This document shows, piece by piece, positions 13,601 through 31,164 of a stretch of 64,000 nucleotides of DNA (within the stretch, counting starts at the first letter, position 1; every line of letters starts with the position of its first letter). Origin of the DNA: a candidate division FCPU426 bacterium (GTDB lineage: Bacteria; Oederibacteriota; Muellerivitia; Muellerivitales; Muellerivitaceae); contig DAIDGV010000003.1 of assembly GCA_027452205.1 (NCBI GenBank), positions 201,399 through 265,398 on the forward strand. Direction: 5' to 3'. A program made the translations under genes and the position numbers. The notes under the pieces are model-generated. The model saw only the letters and a list, made by a program, of their open reading frames with translations. It had not been told where the DNA came from and ran no database searches.

Positions 13601-13746
13601 GTCGCCACGATGGAAGCCTCAGTGGAATGACCCGCCGTGGGCACCACCGTCTGTGCCCATCCCTGATCGATCAGGAGAAAGACGAAAATCCCCAGCCAAA
13701 AAGGGGGTCGCTTAGGCATTTTGATATTCAATATGCAACCGACCAT
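7684..13746 (-). CDS. 2020-aa giant secreted beta-rich outer-membrane protein; SprA-like T9SS translocon candidate (hypothesis)
   Basis: Signal peptide (MPKRPPFWLGIFVFLLIDQGWAQ; alternative start at the second Met). An FN3-like module near the N-terminus, then ~1800 aa of N/T/S/Y/D/G-rich sequence with alternating-hydrophobic beta-strand patterns. C-terminal residue is Phe (LWQISLSGEAKF). SprA is the only family of this size and type known to me. Confidence 0.5.
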   Translation of the reverse strand: MVGCILNIKMPKRPPFWLGIFVFLLIDQGWAQTVVPTAGHSTEASIVATAVAAIPASNGLGPIPTAGNGPVHNASPVPTVDSQGVSGDFSLSPEEEARVLKSIDAENGVTNGVPTHSKTYIYHPPPMPTGVSVIVLKEGVYLSWDTSPAGSSTAYYNVYRSTTPGMGYKQVNSRPLNAAYFLDGASNSLLLPQNGEDYFYVVAAVDGQGNMSPYSDELAVTPNGMEIAQSTEQLAAIRVAKQTAPEQEKILAVPEQNIINLKLPADSQLSIQGYKKVDAAFAFQTFNRPNVDGVSNQVNTTTINQELVVNLKGKVGSNVDVNVDYSDVNRAGGVDETKQDISIVYHGDPDSVVQTVSFGDLQLTLPNTEFAGFSKQLFGLQAVLKFDNFRFTSFFAQTKGIAVTKVFTGNTTQIDKTYSDISYIPWKYFYISRPQATATYLPQSGSEQIWVNPVNNQYAPIGTPNFVGQWEHWLPGRDYTIDYTTGIITFLRTLSLSSQVAVGYTDQSGIKRGLNVFGTTSTDLTPILGQYSTDILNVPDNGIIDSGNNGSTYYILIKDYVGSPGTSTTSSKVLSPMYLVNYFSLGTDKLIPPQQDPGFLFQIISTGTNNIIQTNQGGTAANPYVYNLNLDLNVISVTNVNFANSSPLYFPERPFPNQDGVASPLAAGGVMGNLDVYNIQQNTPNSLYTIHLRYKTQLTTFKLDNINILRGSETVYLDGRLLRRDTDYFIDYTSGFLDFQDKSILTPNSQIVVSYEYSPFGSFGAQNILGGRMEYDVTDKFFIGSTFLLDTSQQPNDTPQLGSTPNSLTLFDADTKYEMDSEDLKSITGIIPGLEKWKPPASLKLSGEIAQSYFNPDTYNAEGETGVALVDNMEGIDSAITASLNTSSWLVSSAPAYAPTYLNSQAGTYDAGADSGNNRVRFYDDVSSTQVDFGINTSTAIPGGGGHVYAQTNQASDVVNVLQVPYAHLTNATWAGLRQVLSSAGEDFSTVQYFQTWIYNDGKDKWIMFDFGVMNENSNNDPSNGVTVLDSDSPLNQAHPNLNYGIPTFYTAFDNNPFAYNVQHAGFNYLPDNHGDLGFIGLQAGYNNYNVVNNSSPGQPETSQEGQYNGSFVTQNMDGTGVLNTQDNYFEYGIRANWSGWQLIKIPVNLVSPDYQSSTSNGISYFFHSQGTPNAIVVKSLRMWITGTSGTPIDGNFLIDTINFTHNLWQLAVDPGANADMGVTINPSKFNVNSISQAENSTYNPNMRFIIIQPGQDQNAIQFNEKSLDITYNLSSADYDPAGNINGKPIYYTTRIFQQGLDFTDYQNLAMDMNIRSYNQGDIFFIRIGNDQLDYYQYNISMESLANNLGLDNWGAVNVAIDGSGGNRTTVGTPYINKASQISFGFISPNPPGGRTGEVWIDNLRTNTANVRTGTARRLNAEMVLGDDPKKPFAVIDGRYREVDSGFTEIDQTSTHFQHSLQYGLDYSSSGIYLFGQPLRAQFSFTDQELYTETALLNNPYYLDLPNSQIDTTTGSILYTKDLGPEFGRLTSINLSGSTSSEVDVYQSAYLDQPGVQGNTEKYEQRVSLISTYDMPTKLWFFPIGTNQLTENYTLTHDQQDFTFNFLSPYDRTTYQQNYGWTNTTEVVKNLVFTPGFSVALTDAVGNTNSPGVPGSVATPVPFVQQFQPKGGLVYRGVPGVIPSITYSGSDTYDAVDYQDGLRFSNSNNVNYSLNVTPGSWLPFFQQINLTLFGGRTDSSTVSIPGYQAGELNFGQQWWLIDPTDPNIDKIALLATRSTTDQLNASFKLFDVWDFRPTGSWTDQYSLLYTGAPPTQQVSDTLGITTIYNKRIFTLPWLSFSVNSAQIEYTHTDSTQYDSSVVSQVDSYSESDIFGVTFPYEISKTSQGNIRFQESLGEQNGLATTNVPTYTHDYQLSAEYDQKFAPNLMLHIPFTHWKIQLHDAIEFKANFLSDYTENDSLYTYNQIKTQRYRGTLEFDYNALKNLRIGLTGINEYYTDYLTSTLGYVLWQISLSGEAKF

Positions 13747-13770
13747 ACGAGCGACCGATCCTTTATCAAC

Positions 13771-14520
13771 TTAATCCAGGTCCAATACTTTCTTAAGCTC
13801 ATCCAATCGATCCCGGCTGACCGGCAACCGCGTCTTGAGTGGATCCGACAGGACGGCGAGATATTTCCTGTCGCCCTCGTGTTCCAATTCCTTGAGATAA
13901 TCGAGATTAATAACAGCGCTACGGTGGATCCGGAGGAATTTTTGTGGATCCAACCGTTTGATCAAAGCGTCCAGGCTGTCGTCCGCCGTTAGTTCTTGCC
14001 CTTCCACCCGCAAGACCGCGTAATGGTCTTTTGCGACGACCGCGGAGATGAATGACGGATCGAACACCTTGTATTTCGAACCACATTTGATCGCCATACG
14101 CCGTTTTGTGCGGCCCTCATCTAGGCGCGCGACCAGGTCCCTTAGATGACCCGCGTTGGCGCCCTCTTTCCTTTTGCGTATACGTTCCAAGGTCTCCGCT
14201 AACCGCTCGGGAGAAACCGGTTTTACCAAATAATCTGCGGCGGAAAGTTCAAAAGCGCGCAAGGCGTGCTCACTGTAAGCTGTCACAAAGACCACCACCG
14301 GGCCTTTGTCCCCCAGGGTTTCTGCCACTTCCAGGCCGTTCAGCTCAGGCATTTCAATGTCCAGGAACAAGAGGTCTGGTTCCAATTTTTGTGCGCTTTG
14401 CAGGGCTTCTACCCCATTGGAGGCTTCCCCGACCACTTCCAGGTCCGGAAAGGCCGCCAACATTCGATGGAACCGGGCCCGGGCCGGTGCTTCGTCATCC
14501 GCGATAAGGACCTTGATCAT
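13771..14520 (-). CDS. LytTR-family response regulator (REC + LytTR DNA-binding domain)
   Basis: MIKVLIADDE...LDIEMPELNG receiver domain. C-terminal LytTR-type domain (KFLRIHRSAVINLDYLKELE). Confidence 0.85.
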   Translation of the reverse strand: MIKVLIADDEAPARARFHRMLAAFPDLEVVGEASNGVEALQSAQKLEPDLLFLDIEMPELNGLEVAETLGDKGPVVVFVTAYSEHALRAFELSAADYLVKPVSPERLAETLERIRKRKEGANAGHLRDLVARLDEGRTKRRMAIKCGSKYKVFDPSFISAVVAKDHYAVLRVEGQELTADDSLDALIKRLDPQKFLRIHRSAVINLDYLKELEHEGDRKYLAVLSDPLKTRLPVSRDRLDELKKVLDLD

Positions 14521-15824
14521 GACTTCCCCTTTTCCGGCGTCGAGACCTTGTTCAAAGGCAAGGAGATCACTAACCGAGCGCCTCCCTTTTTACCGGCTGT
14601 GACCTCTAATGTGCCTTCAGCCCCAAATTCCAAGTTCAACCGTTTTCGGCAATTTTCCAAAGCTGTTCCGGACCCCGCATAAGGAGAGTTTCCAAAGCCC
14701 ACCCCATCGTCCTCGACCGAAAGGGCCAATTGATTCTCTTGTTTCCCTACCTCAACCCATATATGCCCGCCACCCGCCCTGGAGGAGATGCCGTGCTTGA
14801 CCGCGTTCTCCACCAAAGGCTGCAAGATCAAAACGGGCACTTGAATGTTTTCAAGGTCCAACCCTTCGGCGACCTTGATGCGAGAGACCAGTCGGGCGCC
14901 AAAACGGCTCTTTTCAATGTCTAAATAATCTCGGCAAAATTCCAATTCCTTTTTCAGGGCATGATTCGTTTTACGGGTCGCTTCCAAGACCGCTTGGAAC
15001 AAGGAAGAAAGTTTAATCACCACCTGTTCCGCCTTGGCAGGATCCTCAGGGATCAAAGAAGCAACTGTGTTGAGCGTGTTGAAAAGGAAATGCGGGTTCA
15101 TTTGGTCCTTGAGCTTGGTCAAAAGCGCTTGAAGTCTTTCCTTCTCCAATTCTTCAGCGCGCAGGCGACTGGACCGAGCGGCATCCCGCAGTTCTTCCCA
15201 TGATTTCACGAAAAAAAAGACCAAGAGCAACATCCACCCCCAAAAGGTCTCGCTGCCGTAATATTCCCAATGGAACTCTGGTGTAATTGGATCGCCCACG
15301 AAGGTCCAGTTGATGAGATAAACGATCAATCGCAAGGCCAAATAAAGACCCGGTGGTACGAGAATGGCCATGAAAAGAAGGAACCATCCCGTCCCGTGAA
15401 GGGGACGGCTCTTCCCTTGTCGTCCATACCAGAACTTTTCCCCGATTAAGTAGGACCAAATGATCAACATGGCGAACAAGCCAATGAAGGTCGCTTCAAG
15501 GAAGCTCCACCCCCACCTAAAACCGATGGATTGAAGGGAACCCTTCTCATAGATCAGGCTCATCAAGAAACTGGAAAAAGGGTTCCAGATGAAAAGGAGT
15601 TTAAGAAACGAGACCAAAAAGTTCCGCTCAAAATTAAGCGAAAAGAGCCATTTCCACACCCGGTTCATGCGTCGTTCCTTCCCGCTGTTGAAATTGACTA
15701 CCTGTATCCGAGAAACCCCCGGGAACCCCTCTAATACATCCCAAATCATAGCAATTCCGCCTTGGTTGATGGTTATTTTTGGTCCTAGGCAAGACCTGTT
15801 TTGATCCACGCTCTTAAGATACAA
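14517..15824 (-). CDS. LytS/YehU-type sensor histidine kinase (polytopic membrane N-terminus + His_kinase + HATPase_c)
   Basis: Multi-TM N-terminal half. HFLFNTLNTVASLI (PF06580-type His kinase motif). GGHIWVEV...DDGVGF ATPase region. Overlaps the LytTR gene by 4 nt. The real start may be the internal Met at about 15668. Confidence 0.8.
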   Translation of the reverse strand: MYLKSVDQNRSCLGPKITINQGGIAMIWDVLEGFPGVSRIQVVNFNSGKERRMNRVWKWLFSLNFERNFLVSFLKLLFIWNPFSSFLMSLIYEKGSLQSIGFRWGWSFLEATFIGLFAMLIIWSYLIGEKFWYGRQGKSRPLHGTGWFLLFMAILVPPGLYLALRLIVYLINWTFVGDPITPEFHWEYYGSETFWGWMLLLVFFFVKSWEELRDAARSSRLRAEELEKERLQALLTKLKDQMNPHFLFNTLNTVASLIPEDPAKAEQVVIKLSSLFQAVLEATRKTNHALKKELEFCRDYLDIEKSRFGARLVSRIKVAEGLDLENIQVPVLILQPLVENAVKHGISSRAGGGHIWVEVGKQENQLALSVEDDGVGFGNSPYAGSGTALENCRKRLNLEFGAEGTLEVTAGKKGGARLVISLPLNKVSTPEKGKS

Positions 15825-15909
15825 CCCTTACCCAAAGACCGGGGACAGCCGGTCCTCAATGGACGAAAAGCTGTCGTGAGCCGCCGGAAGCGGGGCCTCG
15901 GCTTGCCCC

Positions 15910-15937
15910 TTGGGATGATAGAGCGCTGTGCTATACT
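15910..15937 (+). promoter_or_regulatory. candidate sigma70-type promoter for lptF (TTGGGA-16-TATACT)
   Basis: TTGGGA at 15910-15915, 16-nt spacer, TATACT at 15932-15937. GAGG Shine-Dalgarno and TTG start follow at 15958-15968. Confidence 0.3.
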
Positions 15938-15965
15938 GCGACCCACCACAGCAACCGAGGCTTTT

Positions 15966-17105
15966 TTGAGAATCACCTATCGATACATCCTTCAAGAAAT
16001 GGCGCCGACTTTCTTGGTGGCGGTCGCCATGCTGACCTTCCTTTTCATGACCAACCGTGTCTTTCTTTTGTTGGACCTGATCCTCAACAAAAAAGCCCCT
16101 CTCGGCGATACTCTGGTGCTTTACCTAAGCTTGATGCCCTTTGTTCTCTCCTTTACCATTCCCATGTCCATGATGGTGGCTACCCTTTTGGCCTTTGGCC
16201 GCTTGAGTTCGGACATGGAAGTGACCGCCTTCAAGAGTAGCGGCATCCATGTCTTTCACCTGATCGCACCGGTCCTGGTATTCGGTATGGTGATGACCGG
16301 CATCATGCTCTTTTTCAACGACCGCATCCTGCCAGCGGCTAATTACGCGTTCAAAGAGACCCATTTCAAGATCCTCCAAAAACAGGCAAATGTGGCCATA
16401 CGGGAAAGGATCTTCATCGACCAATTCGAGGGTTACCAGTTCTATATTGACCACCTCAGTCCTGACGGCCTGTTCAATCAGGTGAAGATGTTCAACCGCT
16501 GGTCAGGCAAAGCACCCCTGCAGACCACAGTGGCCAAGACTGGCAATCTGGAATCAGATCCCCAAAAGTACCAAATGTTCTTTCATCTGAACGACGGGGT
16601 CATGAGCTGGGAAAACAATAATTACCAGACCTACAACCGACTCTATTTCCAGCACTACACCATCCATTTAAAGTTGGAGAACCAGTTGGCAAAGATGTCC
16701 GACATCAAGAAGGATTATGAGGAAATGACCTTGGGTGAGCTTTCTTCCGAGATCGGCAAGACCACCGACGAAAGCCGGGAGCGGTCCCTTCACATCGAAT
16801 TTCAAAAACGGATCTCCATGCCCTTCGCTTGCGTCATCTTGATCTGGTTCTGCGCCCCCTTAGGTCTATGGACCCGTTCAAAGGGTTTTATCGGCTTCAT
16901 CTTGGGATTGGCCATGATCTTCGTTTATTACCTGATGTTCACCGTTGGACAGATCATGAGCGAAAGGGGTGTTATGGATCCTGTCATCGGCTGTTGGTGG
17001 CCCAACCTTCTCTTGTTCGTCGTTGGCGCCTTCATTTATTATCTGGTGGTATCCGAAAATTCCGCATTCAAGAACCTGCCTGGTTTTCCCGGCGGCAAAG
17101 GTTGA
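15966..17105 (+). CDS. lptF: LptF/LptG-family LPS export permease (YjgP/YjgQ)
   Basis: ORF track starts at 15801, but the conserved N-terminus (RITYRYILQEM...) aligns with the paralog MRILTRYILKEF. Likely TTG start at 15966 with GAGG 5 nt upstream. 6 TM segments plus a periplasmic beta-jellyroll region. Confidence 0.7.
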   Translation: MRITYRYILQEMAPTFLVAVAMLTFLFMTNRVFLLLDLILNKKAPLGDTLVLYLSLMPFVLSFTIPMSMMVATLLAFGRLSSDMEVTAFKSSGIHVFHLIAPVLVFGMVMTGIMLFFNDRILPAANYAFKETHFKILQKQANVAIRERIFIDQFEGYQFYIDHLSPDGLFNQVKMFNRWSGKAPLQTTVAKTGNLESDPQKYQMFFHLNDGVMSWENNNYQTYNRLYFQHYTIHLKLENQLAKMSDIKKDYEEMTLGELSSEIGKTTDESRERSLHIEFQKRISMPFACVILIWFCAPLGLWTRSKGFIGFILGLAMIFVYYLMFTVGQIMSERGVMDPVIGCWWPNLLLFVVGAFIYYLVVSENSAFKNLPGFPGGKG

Positions 17106-19014: not shown

Positions 19015-19790
19015 CGAACGATCCCACGGGTAGAGCCGTTGAGAAAATCGACAAGGTGCTTGATCTCTTCGATCTGAGGGAACTCGGTCGTCAAGGTATG
19101 GATCGCTTCCTTCAAGGTCATGTTATTTCGAAAAATGACCTTATGTGCCTTTTTGAGCGTATCGATTGTCTCTTTACTGAAATTATTTCGTTCCAGCCCG
19201 ATCTGGTTAACGCCGATGATACGGAGCGGTTCTTCGCCAGCGATCATATAAGGCACCACATCCTGGACCGCCCGGAACCCTCCGCCGATCATCACATAGC
19301 GCCCGATACGGCAGAACTGGTGGACCGGAGTTACCCCGCCAATGGTTGCATGGTCGTCGATGTGCACGTGCCCGCCCAGGGTCGCTAAGTTGGCTAATTT
19401 GATATGACTACCCAAAACACAGTTATGACCCACGTGGGCCTGGATCATCAGCCAGTTATCATTACCGATAATGGTCTTGCTACCCTCGCCTGTTCCTGGA
19501 TTGACCGTCACGTGTTCGCGAAAATAATTGTCATCACCAATCTCTAAATAACAGATCTCGCCTTTATATTTCACATCTTGAGGTTCGCTGCCAATGACGG
19601 CCCCGGTGAAGACCCGATTGCGTTTCCCCATGCTGGTGTGGCCGGTGATGATACAATGGGACCCAACGGTCGTGCCTTCTCCCAGGGTCACATACTCATC
19701 AATGATGGAATAGGGACCAACGTTCACGCCATCTGCCAACCGGGCCTTAGGATGCACGATGGCCGTCGGATGGATCATGGTTGGCATCAA
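19011..19790 (-). CDS. lpxA: acyl-ACP--UDP-N-acetylglucosamine O-acyltransferase
   Basis: Left-handed beta-helix hexapeptide repeats. [26 protein letters not shown] start, 259 aa. Confidence 0.9.
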
Positions 19791-21115
19791 GCTTTACCGT
19801 TCATATCGCGATCAACGATCGCGCAGGTCAATTCGGCTTCCACTGCCACTTGTCCATCCACGATGGCCTTACCGGCGATCTTGCCGATCTTAGCCCGAAC
19901 AAAGACCACATCCACTTCAAAGCGGATCTGATCGCCGGGAACGATGGGCTTTCGGAAACGGGCATTGTCTACCCCGGCAAGGTATAGGATTTTGCCTTGA
20001 TTGATCGGATCGCTCAAAAAGGTAGTACCACCGACCTGGGCCATAGCCTCTAAAATAAGGACACCCGGCATGATGGGGTGTCCAGGAAAATGCCCTTGGA
20101 AAAAGGGTTCGTTGATCGTCACGTTCTTGATACCGACCACCCTTTTCCCCGGTTCCAGCTCCAGTATCCGATCCACCAACAAGAACGGATAACGATGTGG
20201 CAACATCCCTTGGATTTGGACGATATCGAACATGGCAGTACCTCTTATGGAATTATTTGGGCTTCCCTCATGACCGAATTTCTTGAGGATCGCCTTGGCC
20301 AACTCAACGTGATAACGGTGACCGGCCTTTTTCACAGTTATTTTTCCAAGCAACGGACGGTTCAACAGGGTCAGGTCGCCCAAAAGGTCCAACGTTTTAT
20401 GACGGACCACTTCATCTTCAAATCGAAAGGGACCGTTCATGATTCCCGTTTTACCGATCACCATGGCGCAATCGAGATTGCCGCCCTTGATAAGACCTTG
20501 TTTTCGCAAATATTCAATTTCTTCCTCGAAACAAAAGGTGCGGGCTGCGGAAAGATCCTTTTCAAAGGAGCCAGTCTCAAGTTTGAAGATCCGATTCTGG
20601 TTCTCCAAGCCGGGATAAGGGAAGGATGTGGTGACATGAAGTTCCAGTTGGTCTGAGGGTTCCGCCTTTAGGTAAACATCGCCAAAACTCAGCTCAATAG
20701 ATTCGGTAACACGGATGGGTTCGATCGTTCCTTTTTGTTCAACTAAGCCAGCTCTTTCGAACATATGGCAGAATTTGACAGCGCTGCCGTCGAGGATGGG
20801 CATTTCCTCGGCGCTCATCTCCACCTTGAGGTTATTGATCCCAAATCCTGAGACCGTGGCCAAGAAATGCTCAATGGTATGGATGCTGGCATTCTTTTCA
20901 CCGCTCAGGGTAGTGCCTCGAGCGGTGCCACTGACACTTTCCGGACTTACTGTGATCCGGGCATCGAGATCGCTGCGAAAGAATTGGATGCCCGAACCTT
21001 CTGGCAGTGGTGATACTTTGACTTTACAATTCACACCAGTATGGAGGCCCGCCCCTTCGAACTCAAAGGCTCGGGCGATCGTCCTAGGATTAATGGTATT
21101 CCCGTTACTTTTCAT
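19787..21115 (-). CDS. lpxC: bifunctional UDP-3-O-acyl-GlcNAc deacetylase / 3-hydroxyacyl-ACP dehydratase (LpxC-FabZ fusion)
   Basis: N-terminal ~290 aa LpxC ([19 protein letters not shown]...). C-terminal ~150 aa FabZ hot-dog fold ([54 protein letters not shown]). Confidence 0.9.
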
Positions 21116-23909: not shown

Positions 23910-24067
23910 ATGTGTGAAAGCGAAAGTAGTCTAACAAAAGCCTTATTTATTTAAAAGTTTAAATTAACAAGGTTTCAAATTGGACCTATTGGGAGGTAAA
24001 TCGATTACTGTTGACCGGGCTCGAAATCATGAATAACACTGCAAAAGAACAAAACAAACCCAAACCA

Positions 24068-24538
24068 TTAGCCTTGAATGGCACTTGTCGAAGGAAGAAA
24101 TTCCACTCCTTTATCAAAATTCAAAAGAGAGATTATCCGTCCTTGTATATGGGCGACCCCAGTAATGAATCCGGCCCTGGGGTCGTTAGGATCAACTTTA
24201 GAGGGTTTTAAACAATTTACCTGAACATGCAACACTTGACGAATGGCATCCACCAACAACCCAACCATCCCGCCTTCACCCATGGCCGTGACCAAAATGG
24301 CACCTGTTCCTTTCCCCTCGTTTTTCCCTATACCAAAATGACAACGAAGGTCCAAAATTGACATCTTCTGGTTGCGCAGCTTAATCACGCCTTTCAAACA
24401 AGGGTTTTCAGCTTCAGTTTCGACGATGCCATCCGGACCCAATATCTCATGTACCCGATCGAATGCGATCCCATACTCCTCACGCCCCAAGGCAAAAGTA
24501 ATATAGGGCCCCGCCATATGATTCATTTCAGCGCTCAT
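24068..24538 (-). CDS. cheW: chemotaxis coupling protein CheW
   Basis: CheW domain: YITFALGREEYGIAFDRVHEI...GVIKLRNQKMSILDLRCHFG, 156 aa. Confidence 0.8.
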   Translation of the reverse strand: MSAEMNHMAGPYITFALGREEYGIAFDRVHEILGPDGIVETEAENPCLKGVIKLRNQKMSILDLRCHFGIGKNEGKGTGAILVTAMGEGGMVGLLVDAIRQVLHVQVNCLKPSKVDPNDPRAGFITGVAHIQGRIISLLNFDKGVEFLPSTSAIQG

Positions 24539-25023
24539 TCAGGCTCCTGCTCTATCCATAAACGAACCTCAACCGGCCAATTTTCGACAATGAAAGCACA
24601 GCAAGCGGTCGGTTCCTTATCGGGCCAATTTCGGGGTGTCGTGAACCTGGGCAGTTCCATTTTTAACAAACCCCAATTATTGCCCCAAAGATATGCCATC
24701 AAACGACCACTGAAGACATCGACAAATTCCTTGAAAACCTCGATCTCCGCGGATCTTAAGGCTTTCTTACCACCAACTTTTAACATCAATACTTTTGCGA
24801 CATCCGGAGTTGTTCGAACGTTCAAGAACCCCGTCGCATGACCCGAAAAACGAACCGAAAATTCCAATGGAAGCGGTGCCGGACCTTCTACCGGAACTCC
24901 GATATAGCGAGACGGAAGGTGCGCCCAAGATTCCATTACCGCAGTAACACCTTGCAAAATGGCATTCACTTCAATCTTGGGAAAATCACCGTATTCTTGT
25001 GGCGGTATGAAATAGGAAGGCAT
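24535..25023 (-). CDS. CheX-like protein (CheC/CheX/FliY phosphatase-family fold; active-site motif divergent)
   Basis: 162 aa with the order of secondary-structure elements expected for CheX. ELTN-like position reads EFVDVFSG. Overlaps cheW by 4 nt. Confidence 0.4.
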   Translation of the reverse strand: MPSYFIPPQEYGDFPKIEVNAILQGVTAVMESWAHLPSRYIGVPVEGPAPLPLEFSVRFSGHATGFLNVRTTPDVAKVLMLKVGGKKALRSAEIEVFKEFVDVFSGRLMAYLWGNNWGLLKMELPRFTTPRNWPDKEPTACCAFIVENWPVEVRLWIEQEPE

Positions 25024-25053
25024 CGGGCACCTGTCGGACCGGAATATGGATTA

Positions 25054-25081
25054 CCATGGTCAAACGCAAAGGCTGTGCCAA
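25054..25081 (-). promoter_or_regulatory. sigma54 (RpoN) -24/-12 promoter: TGGCAC-N5-TTGC
   Basis: Minus strand reads TGGCACAGCCTTTGCG (plus-strand gcaaaggctgtgcca at 25066-25080). Sits 43 nt upstream of the cheX-like start and directly downstream of the sigma54-dependent response-regulator gene. Confidence 0.6.
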
Positions 25082-25187
25082 AATGAAAATTGTTTATATT
25101 TAATGAATCGGTAGATTTTTATAGGTCTCGCGCAGAGAAGTGTTCAACTATTGGACAAAGAGCGTTCAATAATTGGACGTTCGACTT

Positions 25188-26540
25188 TTATCCCAGTCGG
25201 TATTTTTTGATCTTGCTCAGGAGTGTCGTGCGGCTTACGCCAAGATGTTCCGCAACTTTGGTTTTGTGTCCATTAAATGCCAACAAAGCTTTTTGGATAT
25301 TCTCCTTTTCCGCTTCGTCCCGACTCATGGGTTCAACAGAGGTCTTTCCTATCCCAGTCCTGACAGGGTTCGAGCGCACCGGAGCTGAGGGAAAATCTCC
25401 CGGAACTAATGCTTCAACACGGCAGGTCAAAACCGCACGTTCCATGGCATTCTTCAATTCTCTGACATTTCCTGGCCAAGCATAGTTTTTCAGGGCGGCG
25501 ATCACTTCCGTGGAAAGGGGCCGCAGTTTTTTGTTGAAGTCCTTGCAGAAATCATTGAAAAAGAACCGCGCCAAGCTTTCAATGTCTTCAGGTCGCGATT
25601 TAAGTGGGGGTAAAATGATATTCACGACATTCAGGCGGTAAAAAAGGTCCGCGCGAAAGGTGCCAGCTTCGACCGCCTGCTTCAAATCTCGATTGGTCGC
25701 CGCGATGATCCGGACATCGATCTTACTTTCTTGCAAACCTCCCAATCGGCGAATGGCTTTCTGTTCCAAAACCTTCAAAAGCTTCGTTTGTGCTGAAAGA
25801 GGCATCTCCCCGATCTCGTCCAGAAACACCGTTCCTCCATTAGCGACTTCAAAAAGTCCCGGCTTAGCCCTTCGAGCGTCAGTGAAGGCTCCCGCTTCAT
25901 AGCCGAACAGTTCAGCTTCTAAAAGATTTTCTGGCATCGCGCCACAGTGCAACTCCACGAAAGGCGCCGCCGTTCGGGCCGAAAGCACATGGATCAACTT
26001 TGCCACATGCTCTTTGCCCGTCCCCGTTTCGCCAGCTATCATAACGGTTACGGATGATTGCTGAGCGACTTGCTCGATCTGTTCATAAACCTTCTGCATG
26101 GTCGGATCCGGCAGGAAGAGATAATCCTTTTGGTACATGGCCTTTTGATGGCTCTTCATCGCCTCCAGGTCCCTACGCAATCCCCTTTTTTCGTTGAGTT
26201 TGTTCAAGACGATTTCTAGCTCATCCAGATTGAGCGGTTTAGCTAAGTAGTCCTCCGCTCCCCGTTTAATGGCCTCGACCGCCACTTTGACGTCCACATT
26301 GGCCGTGATTAAGACCACCGAAGCTTCCATTTTCATCTCTTGGAATTTTCTGAAAAAGTCCAAGCCTGTTCCATCCGGTAGATGGACATCAAGCAATATC
26401 GTGTCCGGATTGAACTCATTGGCTTTTTTCAATCCCTCGGCAACTGTAGCCGCCGAATCTACTTCGTACTTCAACTCTTGAAGAAAGGACAACAACATAT
26501 CCCGAATCGGTTTTTCGTCATCAACCAATAGAACTTTCAC
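25188..26540 (-). CDS. sigma54-dependent response regulator (NtrC family: REC + AAA+ sigma54-activator + Fis-type HTH)
   Basis: MKVLLVDDE receiver domain. Walker A GETGTGKE. GAFTDA motif and ESELFGHE-like ELFGYEAGAF region. C-terminal HTH (VAEHLGVSRTTLLSKIKKY). Confidence 0.9.
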   Translation of the reverse strand: MKVLLVDDEKPIRDMLLSFLQELKYEVDSAATVAEGLKKANEFNPDTILLDVHLPDGTGLDFFRKFQEMKMEASVVLITANVDVKVAVEAIKRGAEDYLAKPLNLDELEIVLNKLNEKRGLRRDLEAMKSHQKAMYQKDYLFLPDPTMQKVYEQIEQVAQQSSVTVMIAGETGTGKEHVAKLIHVLSARTAAPFVELHCGAMPENLLEAELFGYEAGAFTDARRAKPGLFEVANGGTVFLDEIGEMPLSAQTKLLKVLEQKAIRRLGGLQESKIDVRIIAATNRDLKQAVEAGTFRADLFYRLNVVNIILPPLKSRPEDIESLARFFFNDFCKDFNKKLRPLSTEVIAALKNYAWPGNVRELKNAMERAVLTCRVEALVPGDFPSAPVRSNPVRTGIGKTSVEPMSRDEAEKENIQKALLAFNGHKTKVAEHLGVSRTTLLSKIKKYRLG

Positions 26541-26541
26541 G

Positions 26542-29280
26542 TTAATCTCCTTCCAAAACGGGTAAGGACACGATGAATTCAGTCCCTTTCGAACGCATCT
26601 TTTTCAATTCGATCTTTCCCCCATATTCCTGAGCGATACGCTGACTGACGGCCAAACCCAGGCCAGACCCTGTTTTTTTTGTGGTAAAGAAAGGCTCAAA
26701 AATCCTTTTCACATTCTCATCCGTTATCCCAGGACCATTATCCTCGACGCTAACTTTTATAAAGGTCCCTTCCCGTTTCAACGCCAACTTTATCTTGTTT
26801 CCCTCGCCCAACGCCTGATAAGCGTTCAGGATCAAATTTACGAATATTTGTTGCAAACGTCCCAATTCTGCGTTTACCTGAAAATCTTCCTTCGGGGCAT
26901 TCCAATCGACCAGGATCTTCTGATGGGAAGGCCCAAACTGAACTTGGCTCAAGCGTAGCGCACTTTCTAGTGCGGCTCTCACCGAGACCGGCCCCACGTT
27001 CAGGACGGCATCCGGCTTAGCGAAGATCAAAGTATCCCGGACCAGTTTTTCAAGCCGGTCCGATTGTTCCAAGATCGTCTCCAATTGCCCATGATCTTCT
27101 TTAGGTTTTTTTCGTTTGAGTATCTGAGCCGCCACCGAGATGGCCGCCAATGGATTGCGTATCTCGTGGGCCATGCCCGCAGACATTTCTCCAATGGTCG
27201 AGAGCCTTTCCATTCGGATCAGGCTTTCTTCGGTCTTTTTCCGCTCCGTCAGGTCGCGGGCAACAACAGCCACCATTGGTAAGCCTTCGTAATGGATAAA
27301 AAAACTGACCACTTCAGCATAGACCTGTTCTCCATCTCTGCGGATAAAGACCTTTTCTTGAGGTGGATTATAATCGCCATGGTCCTTCAATTTACCGATC
27401 CTTTCGAGGATTACCGGCAGGTCCTTTTCACGAATGAACTCATTCGGTTTGAGACCCATTAGTTCTTCTGCTTTGGAATAACCCAAAAAACGAAGCATCG
27501 AATCATTGACATAGACCATTTTAGACGGCCTATCCATCGTGTGAATGATCACGCCATCGGGTGATTTTTCGATCAAATTCCGGAAATTCCTCTCGGACTG
27601 CCTCAGCGCTTCTTCGGCTTTTTTTCGCTCCGTCAGGTCGCGAGCGACCGCCACAGTCACAGGAACTCCCTCGAAGTAGATCATGAAACTAGCCACGTCA
27701 ACATACAATATGGCGCCATCTTTTCGAATAAACCGTTTTTCCTGCGGGGGATTGTAGTCGCCTGGATTTTTTAATTGTTTGATCCGCTCATGAACCGTTG
27801 CTTTATCTTCAGGATGGACAAAAAGAGTCGGAAACCTTCCAACCAACTCCCCGGGTTCGGAATAACCAAGCAAGTTGAGCATCGCATGATTAACATAGAC
27901 TGTCTTTTCAGGGGTATGAATCAAAATCGCATCCGGGGATCTTTCGATCAAATTGCGAAAACTGTGTTCGGACTTCCGCAGGGCTTCTTCGATCTTTTTT
28001 CGCGCGGTCAAATCCCAGAAATTGGTGATCCTAAGGATCTTTCCATTCATAATCAATTCAGCCCCGGTCGCTTCGATCGGAACAATCGAGCCGTTAGGGC
28101 GGATCACATTCAACTCGATCGCCTTCCCAAATTCACCCGTTCGAAGAAGGTCCAAAACGATGTTTTTAGAGTTTTCATCCAAATAATCCGCCGCGTTTTT
28201 TCCAACCATATCTTCCGGTTTATATCCCATCAATTCGGCGCCAGCTTTGTTCACATCAACGATGACACCATTATCATGAATAACGATACCTTCTTTCGAG
28301 ACCTCAGAAAACCGTTTGAACCGTTCTTGGCTTTCAATGATGGCTTGCTCCATTTTTTTCCGCTCTGTAATATCCCAGAGACTCACCACTCGAAGCTCTC
28401 TTCCCGAAAAGTTAAAATTGGTCCCATGTGCCTCTACCGGCAACCAATCGCCATTCTTCCGTTTCACTTTGATTTCGTAAGGCTTATCGGTATATCCTTC
28501 AAGCCTGAACTTTCGAACCAATTCCAGGGACTGGGCGTCAATGAATTCGTCCGATTTTTTTCCGATAAGATCCGACCTAGAATATCCGGTCATATCCGAA
28601 AGCGCTTGATTGAAATCGATGATCGCTCCCTTGTCGTGGATCAAGATGCCTTCCCTCGTGACCTCCGCGAATCTTTCGAATCTTTCCCGGCTTTCTTTTA
28701 AAGCCTTTTCTATTTTCTTTCGTTCGGTCAAGTCCCATATCTTGACCAACCGCATGGTCTTGCCGTGCCACAAAGTATCCATCCCGTGGGTTTCAGCCGA
28801 AACCAAAGTTCCATTAGCATGCTTTAACGTGATCTCAAAGGTCTGCATCGGTATCTCGCCCGATCGGATCTTTTTGATGAACTCCGCTGACTTGTCATCC
28901 ACAAAGAAAAGACTGTCTCTCCCGACGAAGTCCCTTGTTTCAAGCCCCACCATTTCCGCAAGCGCTTGGTTCACCTCCACGATCACGCCCCTATCATGGA
29001 TCAAAAGACCTTCGCGAGTGGCGTCCGCGAATTTTTTGTACCGTTCCTGACTTTCCAGCAATTGCGCTTCTCGTCTATAAAGATGTTGCATCTTGACTCT
29101 ATAATAAATGCCGAAAACCCACCCCTCTATCGCGACCAGTGTTTCCAAAAGGTATAAATAGAGATCACGGCTGGTATGAATGTAGGAACCTAAAAGACAA
29201 ATTAGAAAAACGACACTCAGAATAATATTGAGGATCATTAAAAGATCGCGGCGAGTGATCGGCTGGATGTGTTCTTTCAT
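26542..29280 (-). CDS. membrane-anchored sensor histidine kinase with about six tandem PAS domains + HisKA + HATPase_c
   Basis: 2 N-terminal TM helices. Repeated ~120-aa units ending in TERKK.E.AL. H-box MAHEIRNPLAAI. G-boxes in ...GSGLGLAVSQRIAQEYGGKIEL. Stop is 2 nt before the response-regulator start. Confidence 0.85.
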   Translation of the reverse strand: MKEHIQPITRRDLLMILNIILSVVFLICLLGSYIHTSRDLYLYLLETLVAIEGWVFGIYYRVKMQHLYRREAQLLESQERYKKFADATREGLLIHDRGVIVEVNQALAEMVGLETRDFVGRDSLFFVDDKSAEFIKKIRSGEIPMQTFEITLKHANGTLVSAETHGMDTLWHGKTMRLVKIWDLTERKKIEKALKESRERFERFAEVTREGILIHDKGAIIDFNQALSDMTGYSRSDLIGKKSDEFIDAQSLELVRKFRLEGYTDKPYEIKVKRKNGDWLPVEAHGTNFNFSGRELRVVSLWDITERKKMEQAIIESQERFKRFSEVSKEGIVIHDNGVIVDVNKAGAELMGYKPEDMVGKNAADYLDENSKNIVLDLLRTGEFGKAIELNVIRPNGSIVPIEATGAELIMNGKILRITNFWDLTARKKIEEALRKSEHSFRNLIERSPDAILIHTPEKTVYVNHAMLNLLGYSEPGELVGRFPTLFVHPEDKATVHERIKQLKNPGDYNPPQEKRFIRKDGAILYVDVASFMIYFEGVPVTVAVARDLTERKKAEEALRQSERNFRNLIEKSPDGVIIHTMDRPSKMVYVNDSMLRFLGYSKAEELMGLKPNEFIREKDLPVILERIGKLKDHGDYNPPQEKVFIRRDGEQVYAEVVSFFIHYEGLPMVAVVARDLTERKKTEESLIRMERLSTIGEMSAGMAHEIRNPLAAISVAAQILKRKKPKEDHGQLETILEQSDRLEKLVRDTLIFAKPDAVLNVGPVSVRAALESALRLSQVQFGPSHQKILVDWNAPKEDFQVNAELGRLQQIFVNLILNAYQALGEGNKIKLALKREGTFIKVSVEDNGPGITDENVKRIFEPFFTTKKTGSGLGLAVSQRIAQEYGGKIELKKMRSKGTEFIVSLPVLEGD

Positions 29281-29375
29281 ACGATGACTAGCATATCTAA
29301 ATTGGGTCGAAATGGGTATTCAGGCATCGGCCACAAACCATTAGTTTAAAACGGTTTTGTCCCGGCCAGACATCT

Positions 29376-30680
29376 TCAATACAAGCTTCCTGGATACCGA
29401 TCGCCCAATATTCGGTAATCCTTTTGTTGGATCGCCTGGACCACCTTGTCTCTTTCAGGATAAAGCGAGTTGGTATCCTTGACCGCCAAGGCATACCCCA
29501 ACTGGAAATAGACACAAAGTACAAGAACAACCTTTGTCAAAATGCCGAGAAGTTTATTTTGGGCATACCGGACATAACATTCGGAGGAATAGATCATCAA
29601 AAGTGGAAAAAGGATGTAGTAAATATGGGCCAAGGGCTTTTTGACCGTGAACCAAAAACTGATATAAACCATCACAAAACCGAAAAGCACCAACAATTTC
29701 AAGGGCCTCCAGCTTTTATTCGTCAATCTTTTCCTGAAAAATTCAATCAAAAGAACGAATGGTTGCAGCAAACCTAATATCCATAAGATCGCGCCCGGCG
29801 CTAAAAGCCACCAATGATCCAACAAAAAGCCGACCCGTGCCTTGGTGTTGATCTCGATGAACCGAGGCATCTCAAAACAAGGTATTGAAAGGTACCTGGC
29901 AAAAATAACGAACCCGTTTTTGACGTTATCCCAATTCAATCCAGAAGCGAACCCGGCCGCCGCCCCGCCTTTTGAAAGCCCATATTGAAGATAAGTTGGG
30001 ATGATCAAAGCCGCCATTGGCAACATTCCCACCAAAACCCACAACAAACTTCCAAAACGGCGTTCCCCAAATTGATAGAACAAAGAGATCATCAACAAAG
30101 GAACGAAGTAGATATAAGAAGCGTGGAACTGCATGGCCCAGCCAACGGCAAATCCCATGAGGACATTCGCAAGGCTGATGGGTACAAGGCCTAACCGGGT
30201 CATCGGAAGGGTTTCCAAAAGTCCAACAAAGAAAAGACAAGCCGACAGTAACAAATAACACGGATTCAAGATCGAAGTGCTGTAATTCAGACACCAGGGA
30301 CTTGAGCCGATCCAGACCAAGAGCCAACCAAAGGATAACTCCCGTGAACGTCGGGCGATATACCAAGCCAACAAGACAACCCCTGCCATCGATAAAATGT
30401 TGAGCGTGATATAGGGCGCTTCCGGAATAGGCAAGAGTTTGAACGAGAGTCCGATCAACAAACCTTCAAGCGCCCCAGGGATCTGGCTGGAATAGCTCGA
30501 TTCAGCCCCCGTTAGATCCGGACCGAAATAGGGCCAAGTCTGGGTGGTGTATTGTTTTAGACCGATGAGGTAGGTCTGCTTTTGGTCGTACTCTTGCCAC
30601 TTCGCGTTAAAAAGACCGAATAGAAGGCGGAAAAGAAAAAGAGCTAGGATCAAGAAGACCCAGCTGGATTTAAAGGTCAT
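29376..30680 (-). CDS. polytopic integral membrane protein, possibly a GT-C-type glycosyltransferase (uncertain)
   Basis: About 11 predicted TM helices with large loops. ORF track starts at 30722 inside the tmRNA-derived repeat, so I take the next in-frame ATG at 30680 (MTFKSSWVFLILALF). Confidence 0.45.
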   Translation of the reverse strand: MTFKSSWVFLILALFLFRLLFGLFNAKWQEYDQKQTYLIGLKQYTTQTWPYFGPDLTGAESSYSSQIPGALEGLLIGLSFKLLPIPEAPYITLNILSMAGVVLLAWYIARRSRELSFGWLLVWIGSSPWCLNYSTSILNPCYLLLSACLFFVGLLETLPMTRLGLVPISLANVLMGFAVGWAMQFHASYIYFVPLLMISLFYQFGERRFGSLLWVLVGMLPMAALIIPTYLQYGLSKGGAAAGFASGLNWDNVKNGFVIFARYLSIPCFEMPRFIEINTKARVGFLLDHWWLLAPGAILWILGLLQPFVLLIEFFRKRLTNKSWRPLKLLVLFGFVMVYISFWFTVKKPLAHIYYILFPLLMIYSSECYVRYAQNKLLGILTKVVLVLCVYFQLGYALAVKDTNSLYPERDKVVQAIQQKDYRILGDRYPGSLY

Positions 30681-30694
30681 GACCTGTCCAAAAT

Positions 30695-30725
30695 TTGATG
30701 AAGGCGGTGGGAATCGACCCACGGA
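30695..30725. repeat. partial direct repeat of the tmRNA 3' end (T-arm/acceptor), att-scar-like
   Basis: tttgatgaaggcggtgggaatcgacccacgg here versus ttttggtggaggcggtgggaatcgaacccacgt at 30817-30850 (the genuine tmRNA 3' end). About 27/31 identical, same orientation, 124 nt apart. Confidence 0.5.
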
Positions 30726-30819
30726 ACATTCACAGGGGAAAGGCCCCCTGTGTACCCCTTTAACATCCGGAAAAACTCCCGTTTTCCCGAACCCTTTCCC
30801 GGTGGGTTCGGCGGAATTT

Positions 30820-31164
30820 TGGTGGAGGCGGTGGGAATCGAACCCACGTCCTGAAAATCATCCGTAATGGGCACTACGTGCGTAGCTCAAGAAAGAGTCT
30901 CACCCCCCGCTCGCTCTCGAGCGGCCGGCGGAGAGCCAGTCCCATTGTTTCTCGCCCGGCCATCGGTGGAACAACCCTGATCCGGACCAACCTATTGCTT
31001 ACGTTCCATCCCCCTAATAGGTATCAGAGGCGAAACGCTTACCGCATTAAGCGGCGAGAGCTAACTGGTTATCGGCAGTTATACCGTTTGCCATGTTTGA
31101 CGAGCGATGGCGTCCTCGACACGCACCCAAAAGTTCAGCTTCCCAGTCGAAACCGGTCGCCCCC
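30820..31164 (-). ncRNA. ssrA: tmRNA (ssrA), ~345 nt
   Basis: Minus strand reads 5'-GGGGGCGACCGGTTTCGACTGGG...GGTTCGATTCCCACCGCCTCCACCA-3'. 7-bp acceptor stem with G3:U. tRNA-Ala-like T-arm and encoded CCA. Internal ORF GCA AAC GGT ATA ACT GCC GAT AAC CAG TTA GCT CTC GCC GCT TAA gives tag ANGITADNQLALAA (resume codon inferred). Confidence 0.88.

Follow-up and report, generated by a model that had tools for sequence, protein, structure and literature searches.

The kinase/activator pair and the X-cheW operon

Four genes follow one another on the minus strand of the 64-kb window (the whole stretch of DNA that was analysed), in the order sensor histidine kinase, NtrC-type enhancer-binding protein (EBP), a 164-nt spacer (25024-25187), a divergent CheX-fold protein referred to here as X, and cheW. 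An earlier note on this DNA had given the gene order, the four ORF coordinates, the spacer and the 4-nt overlap (ATGA) that couples cheW translationally to X, and all of these were borne out by an ORF check; the gap between the kinase stop codon and the GTG start of the EBP is however 1 nt, and not 2 nt. The same note is right that cheA, MCP and cheY genes are missing: annotation of the ~50 larger ORFs of the window brought up no cheA, MCP, single-domain cheY, flagellar gene or rpoN, and the remaining genes have housekeeping functions (among them pgk, gap, an lpx cluster, eno, topA and valS). The host of the cassette is an uncultured bacterium of soil or peat.

The kinase (912 aa, 26542..29280, minus strand) was delineated from Pfam and NCBIfam matches, its sequence and hydropathy. 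Read from the N-terminus, it comprises two hydrophobic helices, five tandem PAS domains, a HisKA domain with the H-box MAHEIRNPL, and a HATPase_c domain. Six PAS domains had been announced, but five stretches matched by Pfam/TIGR00229 and five repeated 'DLTERKK' linkers bring the count to five. The two helices are predicted to anchor the kinase in the membrane, with the PAS array on the cytoplasmic side, and a domain search found no P5/CheW-like domain in the protein. Kinase orthologues of 907-1562 aa occupy the same position in the related loci L001, L002, L006, L007, L023 and L029.

The EBP (450 aa, 25188..26540, minus strand) was recognised by Pfam matches and by motifs read from the sequence. 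It possesses the complete NtrC-type domain set, namely a receiver domain (REC; Response_reg, 9e-26), an AAA+ sigma-54 interaction domain (Sigma54_activat, 1e-68, with AAA_lid_14) and a Fis-type HTH (HTH_8, 3e-12). The acceptor region of REC, which according to Pfam is the sole receiver domain encoded by the cassette, reads LLDVHLPD, and the Walker A motif reads GETGTGKE. In this EBP and in all eight cassette-linked EBPs the sigma-54-contacting loop is GAFTDA, versus GAFTGA; a D. vulgaris study reports this variant also in the EBP DVU2106 and lists it as expected to keep activity (PMC4641369).

The last gene (24068..24538, minus strand) encodes a CheW-like adaptor of 156 aa, with a CheW-like domain that spans the whole protein (PF01584, 3e-24, 85.7 bits, profile positions 2-132 of 138). 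Because its score against the NCBIfam CheW equivalog (54 bits) is far under the cut-off of 260, it is not an E. coli-type orthologue. CheW couples the P5 domain of CheA to the tips of MCPs. Homologous CheWs adjoin CheA in L023 and L031, and cheW comes after X in all close loci.

Protein X as a divergent member of the CheX family

X (162 aa, 24535..25023, minus strand) was assigned from a fold model, its relatives and the register of its motifs. It has no Pfam match even at E=10, including to the family profiles PF13690 (CheX) and PF04509 (CheC), no NCBIfam match and no sequence match in the PDB. However, when the AF2 model (pLDDT 89.8, pTM 0.84) was compared with the PDB by Foldseek, the top 13 structures were all CheX or CheC-like (E 8e-9 to 9e-7, TM 0.60-0.76), with CheC, FliM and FliY in the next ranks; a first, low-confidence model gave the identical ranking. 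Moreover, 25 of the 97 distant relatives retrieved by profile search match PF13690 (best E 9e-10). The CheX-like identity claimed by the earlier note is thus confirmed by the fold and by transitive homology, but not by a CheX/CheC HMM run on X itself. The model predicts a single domain of ~150 aa with the CheX fold and its long active-site helix, which places X in a CheX subfamily that is highly divergent and had so far escaped recognition.

X resembles the CheX proteins of T. maritima (1XKO), B. burgdorferi (3HZH) and V. vulnificus (6VPW) in its size (~155-160 aa) and alpha/beta fold (TM 0.60-0.76), in the acidic residue E99 at the E position of the long helix, in the D/E-x3-E-x2-[N]-x22-P register, and in its neighbourhood, with cheW here and cheA and cheY in relatives. 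It differs by the lack of any profile or PDB sequence match, by the replaced Asn, and by a predicted dedicated EBP/sigma-54 promoter. The active-site consensus of CheX is D/S-x3-E-x2-N-x21/22-P, whose Glu and Asn reach into the active site of CheY (PMC12887009; PMC3035606). The motif of X is in register (E95-x3-E99-x2-D102-x22-P125) and incomplete, with E95, E99 and P125 kept and D102 at the Asn position. This position is occupied by Ala, Ser or Val in the close orthologues P0003-P0009, while a clade of 165-aa proteins retains the Asn but has Gln in place of the Pro; in the 28 canonical distant relatives, all with the full motif, D-x3-E-x2-N-x22-P is (nearly) invariant.

These replacements make the label of putative phosphatase, which X had been given, doubtful, and the window clade has accordingly not kept the chemistry of canonical CheX. 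The label 'non-catalytic' is uncertain as well, since the Asp of X might still support hydrolysis: the RapH variant Q47E retains activity, and an acidic residue possibly serves this purpose in Spo0E (PMC3035606).

Across the 17-member family, 38 residues of X are invariant. Motifs specific to the family are W133-P134 and P150-x-E152-x-R-L-W156; the near-invariance of WP, PxExRLW and R70 is a feature noted only within alignments of the X family itself. Comparison with L039, in which synonymous sites are saturated, gave pN 0.064 and pS 0.67 for X (pN/pS ~0.1, dN/dS ~0.04), and pN 0.126 and pS 0.78 for cheW (pN/pS ~0.16). These ratios point to strong purifying selection on both genes.

In spirochaetes (Borrelia, Treponema), cheX and cheW are co-transcribed neighbours within cheA-cheW-cheX-cheY operons, and CheX has the canonical E-x2-N site and is found alongside CheA and CheY; these operons are not known to be under an NtrC-type EBP. 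The two genes are neighbours in the window too, which however lacks CheA, CheY and the canonical E-x2-N.

Promoter, enhancer palindromes and related loci

The spacer contains a sigma-54 (-24/-12) promoter, TGGCACagcctTTGC (25066-25080, minus strand), which is the sole exact TGGCAC-N5-TTGC match in the 64-kb window, where 0.07 would be expected. By the pattern used for such promoters (GG and GC 10 nt apart, TGGCAC-N5-TTGCW, pointing toward the downstream gene), the element extends to TGGCACagcctTTGCg (25065-25080, minus strand). Its end lies 42 nt before the ATG of X, and in related loci the element sits 40-60 nt before the X start, a position maintained in at least 15 of them. The promoter is kept in L001-L004 and L006-L008, with one mismatch in L005, and further in L009, L011, L020, L023, L029 and L039.

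An alignment of six intergenic regions revealed two palindromes, taken here as upstream activating sequences (UAS): UAS 1, GTCCAATTATTGAAC (GTCCA-N5-TGrAC; 25164..25178, minus strand), and UAS 2, GTCCAATAGTTGAAC (25142..25156, minus strand). They are spaced by 22 bp, and their centres precede the inferred transcription start by ~117 and ~95 nt, within the ~80-150 bp range sought for enhancers, and both are conserved in the orthologous regions. The GTCCA-N5-TGrAC class occurs twice in the window, both times upstream of the sigma-54 promoter, and L029, L009 and L039 share the palindrome of UAS 1. The promoter and the paired palindromes are conserved although X identity between loci is only 40-67%. 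Furthermore, the UAS type switches with the recognition helix of the EBP HTH between two clades, the GVSRTTLLSKIKKY helix being paired with GTCCA-N5-TGGAC and the GISRNTLLNKIKRY helix with TTGGGCA/TGCCAAG.

The sigma-54 promoter proposed by the earlier note is thus upheld by its uniqueness and conservation. The enhancers, for which a search of the last 150 nt of the regulator gene had been advised, were found instead in the spacer, right after the stop codon. The wiring suggested then, from the adjacent EBP through the UAS and the sigma-54 promoter to X-cheW, gains strong comparative support from the conservation of promoter and palindromes and from the co-variation of UAS and HTH. The stretch of minus strand from the EBP gene to X showed no terminator-like site, and transcription of the kinase/activator operon could therefore also run on into X, in addition to the sigma-54 start.

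Wherever a related metagenomic locus extends far enough, it too has the promoter, the palindromes and the gene order. L001, L002/L003, L006 and L007 preserve the order HK-EBP-X-CheW, which L005, L039 and L040 show in part, and the cassette loci represent two or more distinct genomic neighbourhoods. Other relatives are more elaborate. L023 reads HK-EBP-s54p-X-CheA-CheW and, like L025, has CheA and CheW without CheY beside the same HK/EBP pair; L031, the third relative with CheA, is an operon (s54p-CheY-X-CheA-CheW-MCP-CheR-CheD) with no adjacent HK/EBP. More distant X relatives head full che operons, often behind the same kinase/activator/sigma-54 design. Members of the X subfamily thus appear to be, typically, the first gene of sigma-54-controlled che operons, among which the window cassette, with X and CheW and no CheA, CheY or MCP, looks like the most reduced form.

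Proposed role of the cassette

Coupling of NtrC-type regulation to Che components, which had been considered unusual, has precedents in Geobacter (PMC2577667), D. vulgaris (PMC4641369) and the M. xanthus Che3/CrdS-CrdA system (PMC3147164). Sigma-54 promoters are documented before che clusters of Geobacter (PMC2577667), and the sigma-54 regulon of D. vulgaris includes chemotaxis operons, with chemotaxis-linked promoters among those without a predicted UAS (PMC4641369). The Geobacter and Desulfovibrio che operons resemble the cassette in having predicted -24/-12 promoters directly upstream; unlike it, they are full che clusters rather than a cheX-cheW pair, and the passages on their promoters do not link these to a cognate kinase/EBP pair encoded just upstream (PMC2577667, PMC4641369).

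The Che3 system of M. xanthus has no CheY, and its output is the NtrC-like CrdA, on which the classical kinase CrdS acts as well and whose phosphorylation is lowered by CheA3, which dephosphorylates it (PMC3147164). It shares with the cassette a classical kinase and an NtrC-type activator tied to Che proteins in the absence of CheY. In the window, however, the Che proteins are only a CheX-like protein, which Che3 lacks, and CheW, and they are placed downstream of the activator by the UAS and sigma-54 promoter; CrdS moreover has a periplasmic sensor and HAMP, whereas the window kinase has a PAS array. A hybrid of the Che3/CrdSA type, in which a CheA module controls the NtrC regulator, does not fit the window cassette, which has no CheA or MCP. 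Individually, the parts of the cassette are ordinary; their wiring (HK, EBP, sigma-54 promoter and X-cheW) is well supported and apparently undescribed so far.

We consider it fairly probable that this is a self-contained, laterally movable cassette, running from kinase through EBP and sigma-54 to X and CheW, which is accessory to a distant Che pathway. The membrane kinase would sense, through its five cytoplasmic PAS domains, a cue that is probably intracellular or of redox type, and phosphorylate the adjacent activator. Judging from conservation and from UAS/HTH co-variation, the activator would then bind the two palindromic enhancers just past its own stop codon and remodel the sigma-54 holoenzyme at TGGCAC-N5-TTGC, switching on the bicistronic X-cheW operon. 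Most likely, X would act as a modulator by binding a receiver domain, its canonical phosphatase activity being weak or absent, and together with CheW would provide conditionally expressed accessory subunits for a Che-type pathway whose genes lie elsewhere in the genome. A remodelling of a chemosensory array, as suggested by the earlier note, would be a putative role of this kind; array genes are not visible in the window.

Alternatively, with information flowing the opposite way, X and CheW could act back on the two-component pair of the cassette itself, in the manner of Che3/CrdSA. X would dock on the EBP receiver and dephosphorylate or sequester it, resulting in a self-limiting pulse of expression, and CheW would tether X/EBP to a receptor or kinase complex. 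That the EBP receiver is the only one in the cassette, that L023 and L025 combine CheA and CheW without CheY as M. xanthus Che3 does, and that X is typically promoter-proximal in the versions compared all speak for such feedback. We nevertheless regard it as rather unlikely. In L031, a complete che operon with no HK/EBP beside it, X comes directly after a single-domain CheY, and the ancestral target of X is therefore a CheY; the window clade no longer has the catalytic Asn; the X-EBP interaction is putative; and the cassette offers CheW no evident partner, since the kinase is devoid of a P5/CheW-like domain. A bolder form of the idea, which we hold to be improbable, is that X, once a CheY phosphatase, has come to regulate an NtrC-type transcription factor instead: induced by the activator, it would dock on the receiver of the latter, with or without catalysis, the Asn being replaced by Asp or by a side chain that is not catalytic, and form a minimal feedback module with CheW. 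If true, the cassette would descend from a chemosensory pathway, have no CheA and now shape how sigma-54 transcription proceeds over time, and X would be the first member of the CheX family for which an action on a response regulator of the transcription-factor type is shown.

It is very improbable that X-cheW is a non-functional stump left by a che operon after loss of cheA, cheY and mcp. Relatives do have fuller operons, the Asn position varies in the closest orthologues (D/A/S/V), so that its loss could be part of a decay, and CheW diverges faster than the EBP (37-47% versus 73-79% identity to the cassette-locus counterparts). However, both ORFs are intact and translationally coupled, the invariant residues of X and the low pN/pS and dN/dS values reported above argue against decay, and six or more independent metagenomic lineages, in two genomic contexts, have kept the two-gene form with its promoter and UAS. 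Finally, there is scarcely any likelihood of a coincidental adjacency, with HK/EBP serving a distant promoter and the X-cheW promoter belonging to another EBP or being a chance match: unlinked promoters can be EBP targets and the support for the wiring is sequence-based, but the 64 kb hold no second promoter match, the adjacency is maintained in all loci with enough flank, and UAS and HTH co-vary.

As for its location, the accessory cassette favoured here is missing from the syntenic site of six FCPU426-type genomes (L012-L017). The tmRNA gene ssrA (30820..31164, minus strand; Rfam RF00023, ARAGORN and comparison with L012-L017) forms the upstream edge of a 6.9-kb segment lacking at this site in these relatives, the corresponding gap being 0.2-1.6 kb in the five that carry the tmRNA (L012-L014, L016, L017). 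No repeat was found at the cheW end of the segment, nor any recognisable integrase. A repeat search (family D3) and reading of the sequence identified a 30-nt, 87% copy of the ssrA 3' end (30691..30720, minus strand), 124 nt downstream, which may be the scar of a site-specific integration.

Gene content and control region of the cassette

Four co-oriented genes lie on the minus strand, exactly where the earlier note had placed them. The first encodes a PAS histidine kinase of 912 aa (26542-29280), in which Pfam and NCBIfam recognise tandem PAS, HisKA and HATPase_c domains; its H-box is MAHEIRNPL, and a reading of the sequence adds two hydrophobic helices at the N-terminus. A repeated '(W/R)DLTERKK' linker closes each PAS unit, and five units are read rather than the six counted previously. 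The kinase gene is followed by that of a complete NtrC-type enhancer-binding protein of 450 aa (EBP, 25188-26540), with REC, sigma-54 interaction AAA+, lid and HTH_8 regions. After a spacer of 164 nt come the gene of a 162-aa protein, referred to here as X (24535-25023), and that of a 156-aa CheW (24068-24538; PF01584, 3e-24), the two sharing an ATGA overlap. As had been noted, the window's remaining large ORFs include no cheA, mcp or cheY, and they include no flagellar gene or rpoN either. They are of housekeeping type (pgk, gap, lptFG, lpxI/A/C-fabZ/D, ompH, eno, nrdR, topA, dprA, valS and accA, among others).

The EBP loop that contacts sigma-54 (residues about 216-221) reads GAFTDA, not GAFTGA. 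The same replacement of the canonical motif is present in every cassette-linked EBP, that is, in the window and in the related metagenomic loci L001, L002, L006, L007, L020, L023, L025 and L029, and the GAFTDA variant is listed for DVU2106 of D. vulgaris (PMC4641369). The kinase orthologues of the window, L001, L002, L006, L007 and L023 range from 907 to 1562 aa, a spread that stems from near-identical PAS repeats gained or lost; PAS units within the kinases share at most about 50% identity with one another in offset self-matches.

The spacer contains an exact TGGCAC-N5-TTGC element, TGGCACagcctTTGC (25066-25080, minus strand), corresponding to the -24/-12 signature of a sigma-54 promoter. It is the single exact match in the 64 kb, where 0.07 would be expected, and no further site is found in the window at one mismatch. 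The ATG of X begins 42 nt past the end of this element. The EBP stop codon is directly followed by a pair of 15-bp palindromes spaced 22 bp from each other, GTCCAATTATTGAAC (25164-25178, minus strand) and GTCCAATAGTTGAAC (25142-25156, minus strand), centred about 117 and about 95 nt before the inferred start; no further copy of their class, GTCCA-N5-TGrAC, occurs in the window. When the spacers of five metagenomic loci (X identity 50-67%) are aligned, conservation picks out precisely the palindrome pair (consensus GTCCAATAATTGGAC) and the -24/-12 element, and the same layout is found in L009, L029 and L039/L040. Cassettes of a second clade (L011, L020, L023, L025) keep the sigma-54 element but have an enhancer of another type, TTGGGCA...TGCCAAG, and the recognition helix of their EBPs differs as well (GISRNTLLNKIKRY versus GVSRTTLLSKIKKY). 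This co-variation of upstream activating sequence (UAS) and recognition helix is the strongest evidence to be had without an experiment that the adjacent EBP binds the palindromes, and we consider the predicted promoter and enhancer to be real. A conserved ORF of 156-225 aa, for which the L023 copy gave no Pfam family, sits between the EBP gene and X in this second clade (L011 74-544, L020 2676-3353, L023 7037-7621, L025 5192-5665) and has its own sigma-54-like element upstream in L011 and L025.

On the minus strand, neither the stretch between the EBP gene and X nor that from cheW to 22781-22754 showed a terminator-like site, and X and cheW may therefore also be transcribed by read-through from the upstream kinase/EBP operon.

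Fold and active site of X

The earlier note had described X as CheX-like and as a putative phosphatase, two claims that fare differently. X itself matches no Pfam model at E=10 and no NCBIfam model at E=1, and PDB searches with 17- and 97-sequence profiles returned only noise, such as acetylcholinesterase and the CheC 3qta (E=0.41). Searched with a profile, 1.84 billion cluster representatives yielded 114 relatives of X, and 25 of the 97 relatives scanned match Pfam CheX (PF13690), with a best E of 9e-10. The AlphaFold2 model built from a 97-sequence alignment is confident (pLDDT 89.8, pTM 0.84) and supersedes one from a shallow 17-sequence alignment (pLDDT 55). The 13 PDB entries that match it best are, without exception, CheX or single-domain CheC-like proteins (1XKO, 3HM4, 6VPW, 3H2D, 3HZH and others; E 8e-9 to 9e-7, TM 0.60-0.76); CheC, FliM and FliY rank next, the remainder being noise. 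Taken together, the relatives matching PF13690, the model and the PDB matches therefore bear out the term CheX-like as regards fold and superfamily. Features of the family's own that are near-invariant are R70, W133-P134 and P-x-E152-x-R-L-W156.

The active-site consensus of CheX is D/S-x3-E-x2-N-x21/22-P, in which the Glu and Asn are located one turn apart on a long helix and the Asn positions the attacking water (PMC12887009, PMC3035606). Among 28 distant relatives of X the E, N and P are invariant and the D nearly so, and the register of the motif is therefore secure. In the window X these positions are E95, E99, D102 and P125. The Asn position is thus Asp in the window and reads D, D, D, A, S, A, V, A, A, A among the closest orthologues. 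In the 165-aa clade, a subclade of the orthologues, the Asn is retained, and a Gln occupies the Pro position in all members except the orthologue P0012. A position that tolerates Ala, Val or Ser is evidently not under selection for catalysis, which makes a conventional phosphatase unlikely in the window's clade. By analogy, D102 might still orient water; activity is seen with the RapH variant Q47E, and Spo0E seems to rely on an acidic residue (PMC3035606).

Conservation, reduction and proposed circuit

A collection of 5.8 billion proteins holds only 17 relatives of X at E<1e-3, all of them unnamed or 'hypothetical', and no close relative was found in 185,579 species-representative genomes. The order PAS kinase, EBP, X, CheW is intact wherever the contig is long enough (L001, L002/L003, L006, L007), and L005, L039 and L040 are partial cassettes. 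Relative to the window, the EBP shows 73-79% identity, the kinase 47-60%, X 50-67% and CheW 37-47%. Compared with L039, X has a pN of 0.064 and a pS of 0.67 (dN/dS ~0.04), and CheW a pN of 0.126 and a pS of 0.78. Purifying selection is indicated on both X and cheW, and on these values we reject the reading of the pair as a pseudogene or remnant.

The cassettes of the 165-aa clade lie in unrelated genomic neighbourhoods. A conserved familyless protein of 209-213 aa follows cheW in this clade (L001 11024-11653, L002 6343-6984, L007 10191-10832); no homologue of it was found in the window. A TonB-dependent receptor, a DUF4154 (YfiR/HmsC-like) protein and a CHASE8/PAS kinase stand beside the L001 cassette (12282-16869), a TonB-dependent receptor beside that of L023 (11514-13178) and a DUF4154 protein beside that of L029 (8471-9037). 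The recurrence of such neighbours may point to a connection with envelope or c-di-GMP-type signalling.

Family members at a greater distance are leading genes in che operons. In L031 a sigma-54 promoter precedes CheY, X, CheA, CheW, MCP, CheR and CheD. L023 and L025 carry PAS kinase, EBP, small ORF, sigma-54 promoter, X, CheA, small ORF and CheW, and L029 carries PAS kinase, EBP, a UAS of the same GTCCA type as in the window, sigma-54 promoter and X, with a YfiR-like protein, CheD and a REC protein after it. On the short contigs L010 and L011, the protein encoded after X carries a CheA-type Hpt domain, and the only likeness of the ORF downstream of X in L009 is to the N-terminal extension in front of the Hpt domain of L011. 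The window cassette is thus the most reduced form of a recurrent sigma-54/EBP-gated Che module, in a series running from full che operon to CheX-CheA-CheW to CheX-CheW, with the catalytic Asn relaxed in the window's subclade of the last form and kept in the 165-aa subclade. Such a series makes a useful test case for the recycling of chemosensory parts into other signalling.

In the circuit that we propose, the kinase would phosphorylate the adjacent EBP, which would bind the two palindromes and open the sigma-54 promoter, and X and CheW would be produced only under the signal sensed by the kinase's PAS domains. We favour the reading that both proteins then become part of a Che-type pathway encoded elsewhere in the genome, or modulate it; CheW would add a further coupling protein, and X would be a modulator that binds a receiver. 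The chief alternative is that X and CheW might feed back on the receiver of the EBP itself, by analogy with M. xanthus, in which the NtrC-like CrdA is controlled by both the classical kinase CrdS and the Che3 system (PMC3147164). With its two 15-bp sites, single promoter and two genes, the wiring is explicit, and reporter and gel-shift tests should be straightforward.

The coupling of NtrC-type regulation to Che components had been presented as unusual. Sigma-54 promoters upstream of che clusters are reported in Geobacter (PMC2577667), the sigma-54 regulon of D. vulgaris includes chemotaxis operons (PMC4641369), and NtrC-Che coupling is reported in M. xanthus (PMC3147164). With these precedents and the known GAFTDA variant, the coupling is therefore not categorically unusual. 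What is new is a CheX subfamily that current profiles miss, the consistent position of X as first gene behind a dedicated PAS kinase/EBP/UAS/sigma-54 unit, and a two-gene derivative that lacks CheA, is relaxed at the catalytic residue and behaves as an accessory element inserted beside ssrA in an uncultured phylum. More broadly, PAS kinase, EBP, paired UAS and sigma-54 promoter before che-type operons form a recurrent design in uncultured soil and peat bacteria.

Insertion beside ssrA and other features of the window

The window LpxC-FabZ, 80% identical to that of a bog MAG, places the organism near candidate division FCPU426. Six related FCPU426 genomes keep the downstream synteny of beta-helix protein, OmpH, LpxD and LpxC-FabZ and lack the cassette. 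The tmRNA gene and the beta-helix gene are 0.2-1.6 kb apart in the five ssrA-carrying relatives (L012-L014, L016, L017). In the window the tmRNA gene (ssrA, tag ADNQLALAA; 30820-31164, minus strand) is separated from the beta-helix gene by 6.9 kb (23910-30819), comprising the four cassette genes and a familyless ORF of 448 aa. A 30-nt copy (87%) of the ssrA 3' end is present at 30691-30720, 124 nt downstream of ssrA. At its other end, beside cheW, the inserted segment yielded no second ssrA-derived repeat, and the tmRNA is the only structured RNA detected in 22-31 kb. The segment 23910-30819 resembles an island associated with ssrA but has no integrase that could be recognised. The 448-aa ORF, between ssrA and the kinase gene (29376-30722, minus strand), has no Pfam or NCBIfam match and no homologue in any of the loci compared; its GTG start falls within the ssrA-derived repeat.

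Elsewhere on the minus strand, two adjacent giant ORFs of 1502 aa (3176-7684) and 2020 aa (7684-13746) match no Pfam family at E<=1e-5. The 442-aa LpxC-FabZ (19787-21115, minus strand) is a fused protein encoded in an lpxD / lpxC-fabZ / lpxA / lpxI cluster that is kept in FCPU426-type MAGs. Furthermore, a 768-aa protein (43287-45593, minus strand) combines a T2SSE/PilB-type ATPase domain with a long TPR region, and an RHS-repeat protein of 467 aa is encoded at 53799-55202 on the same strand.
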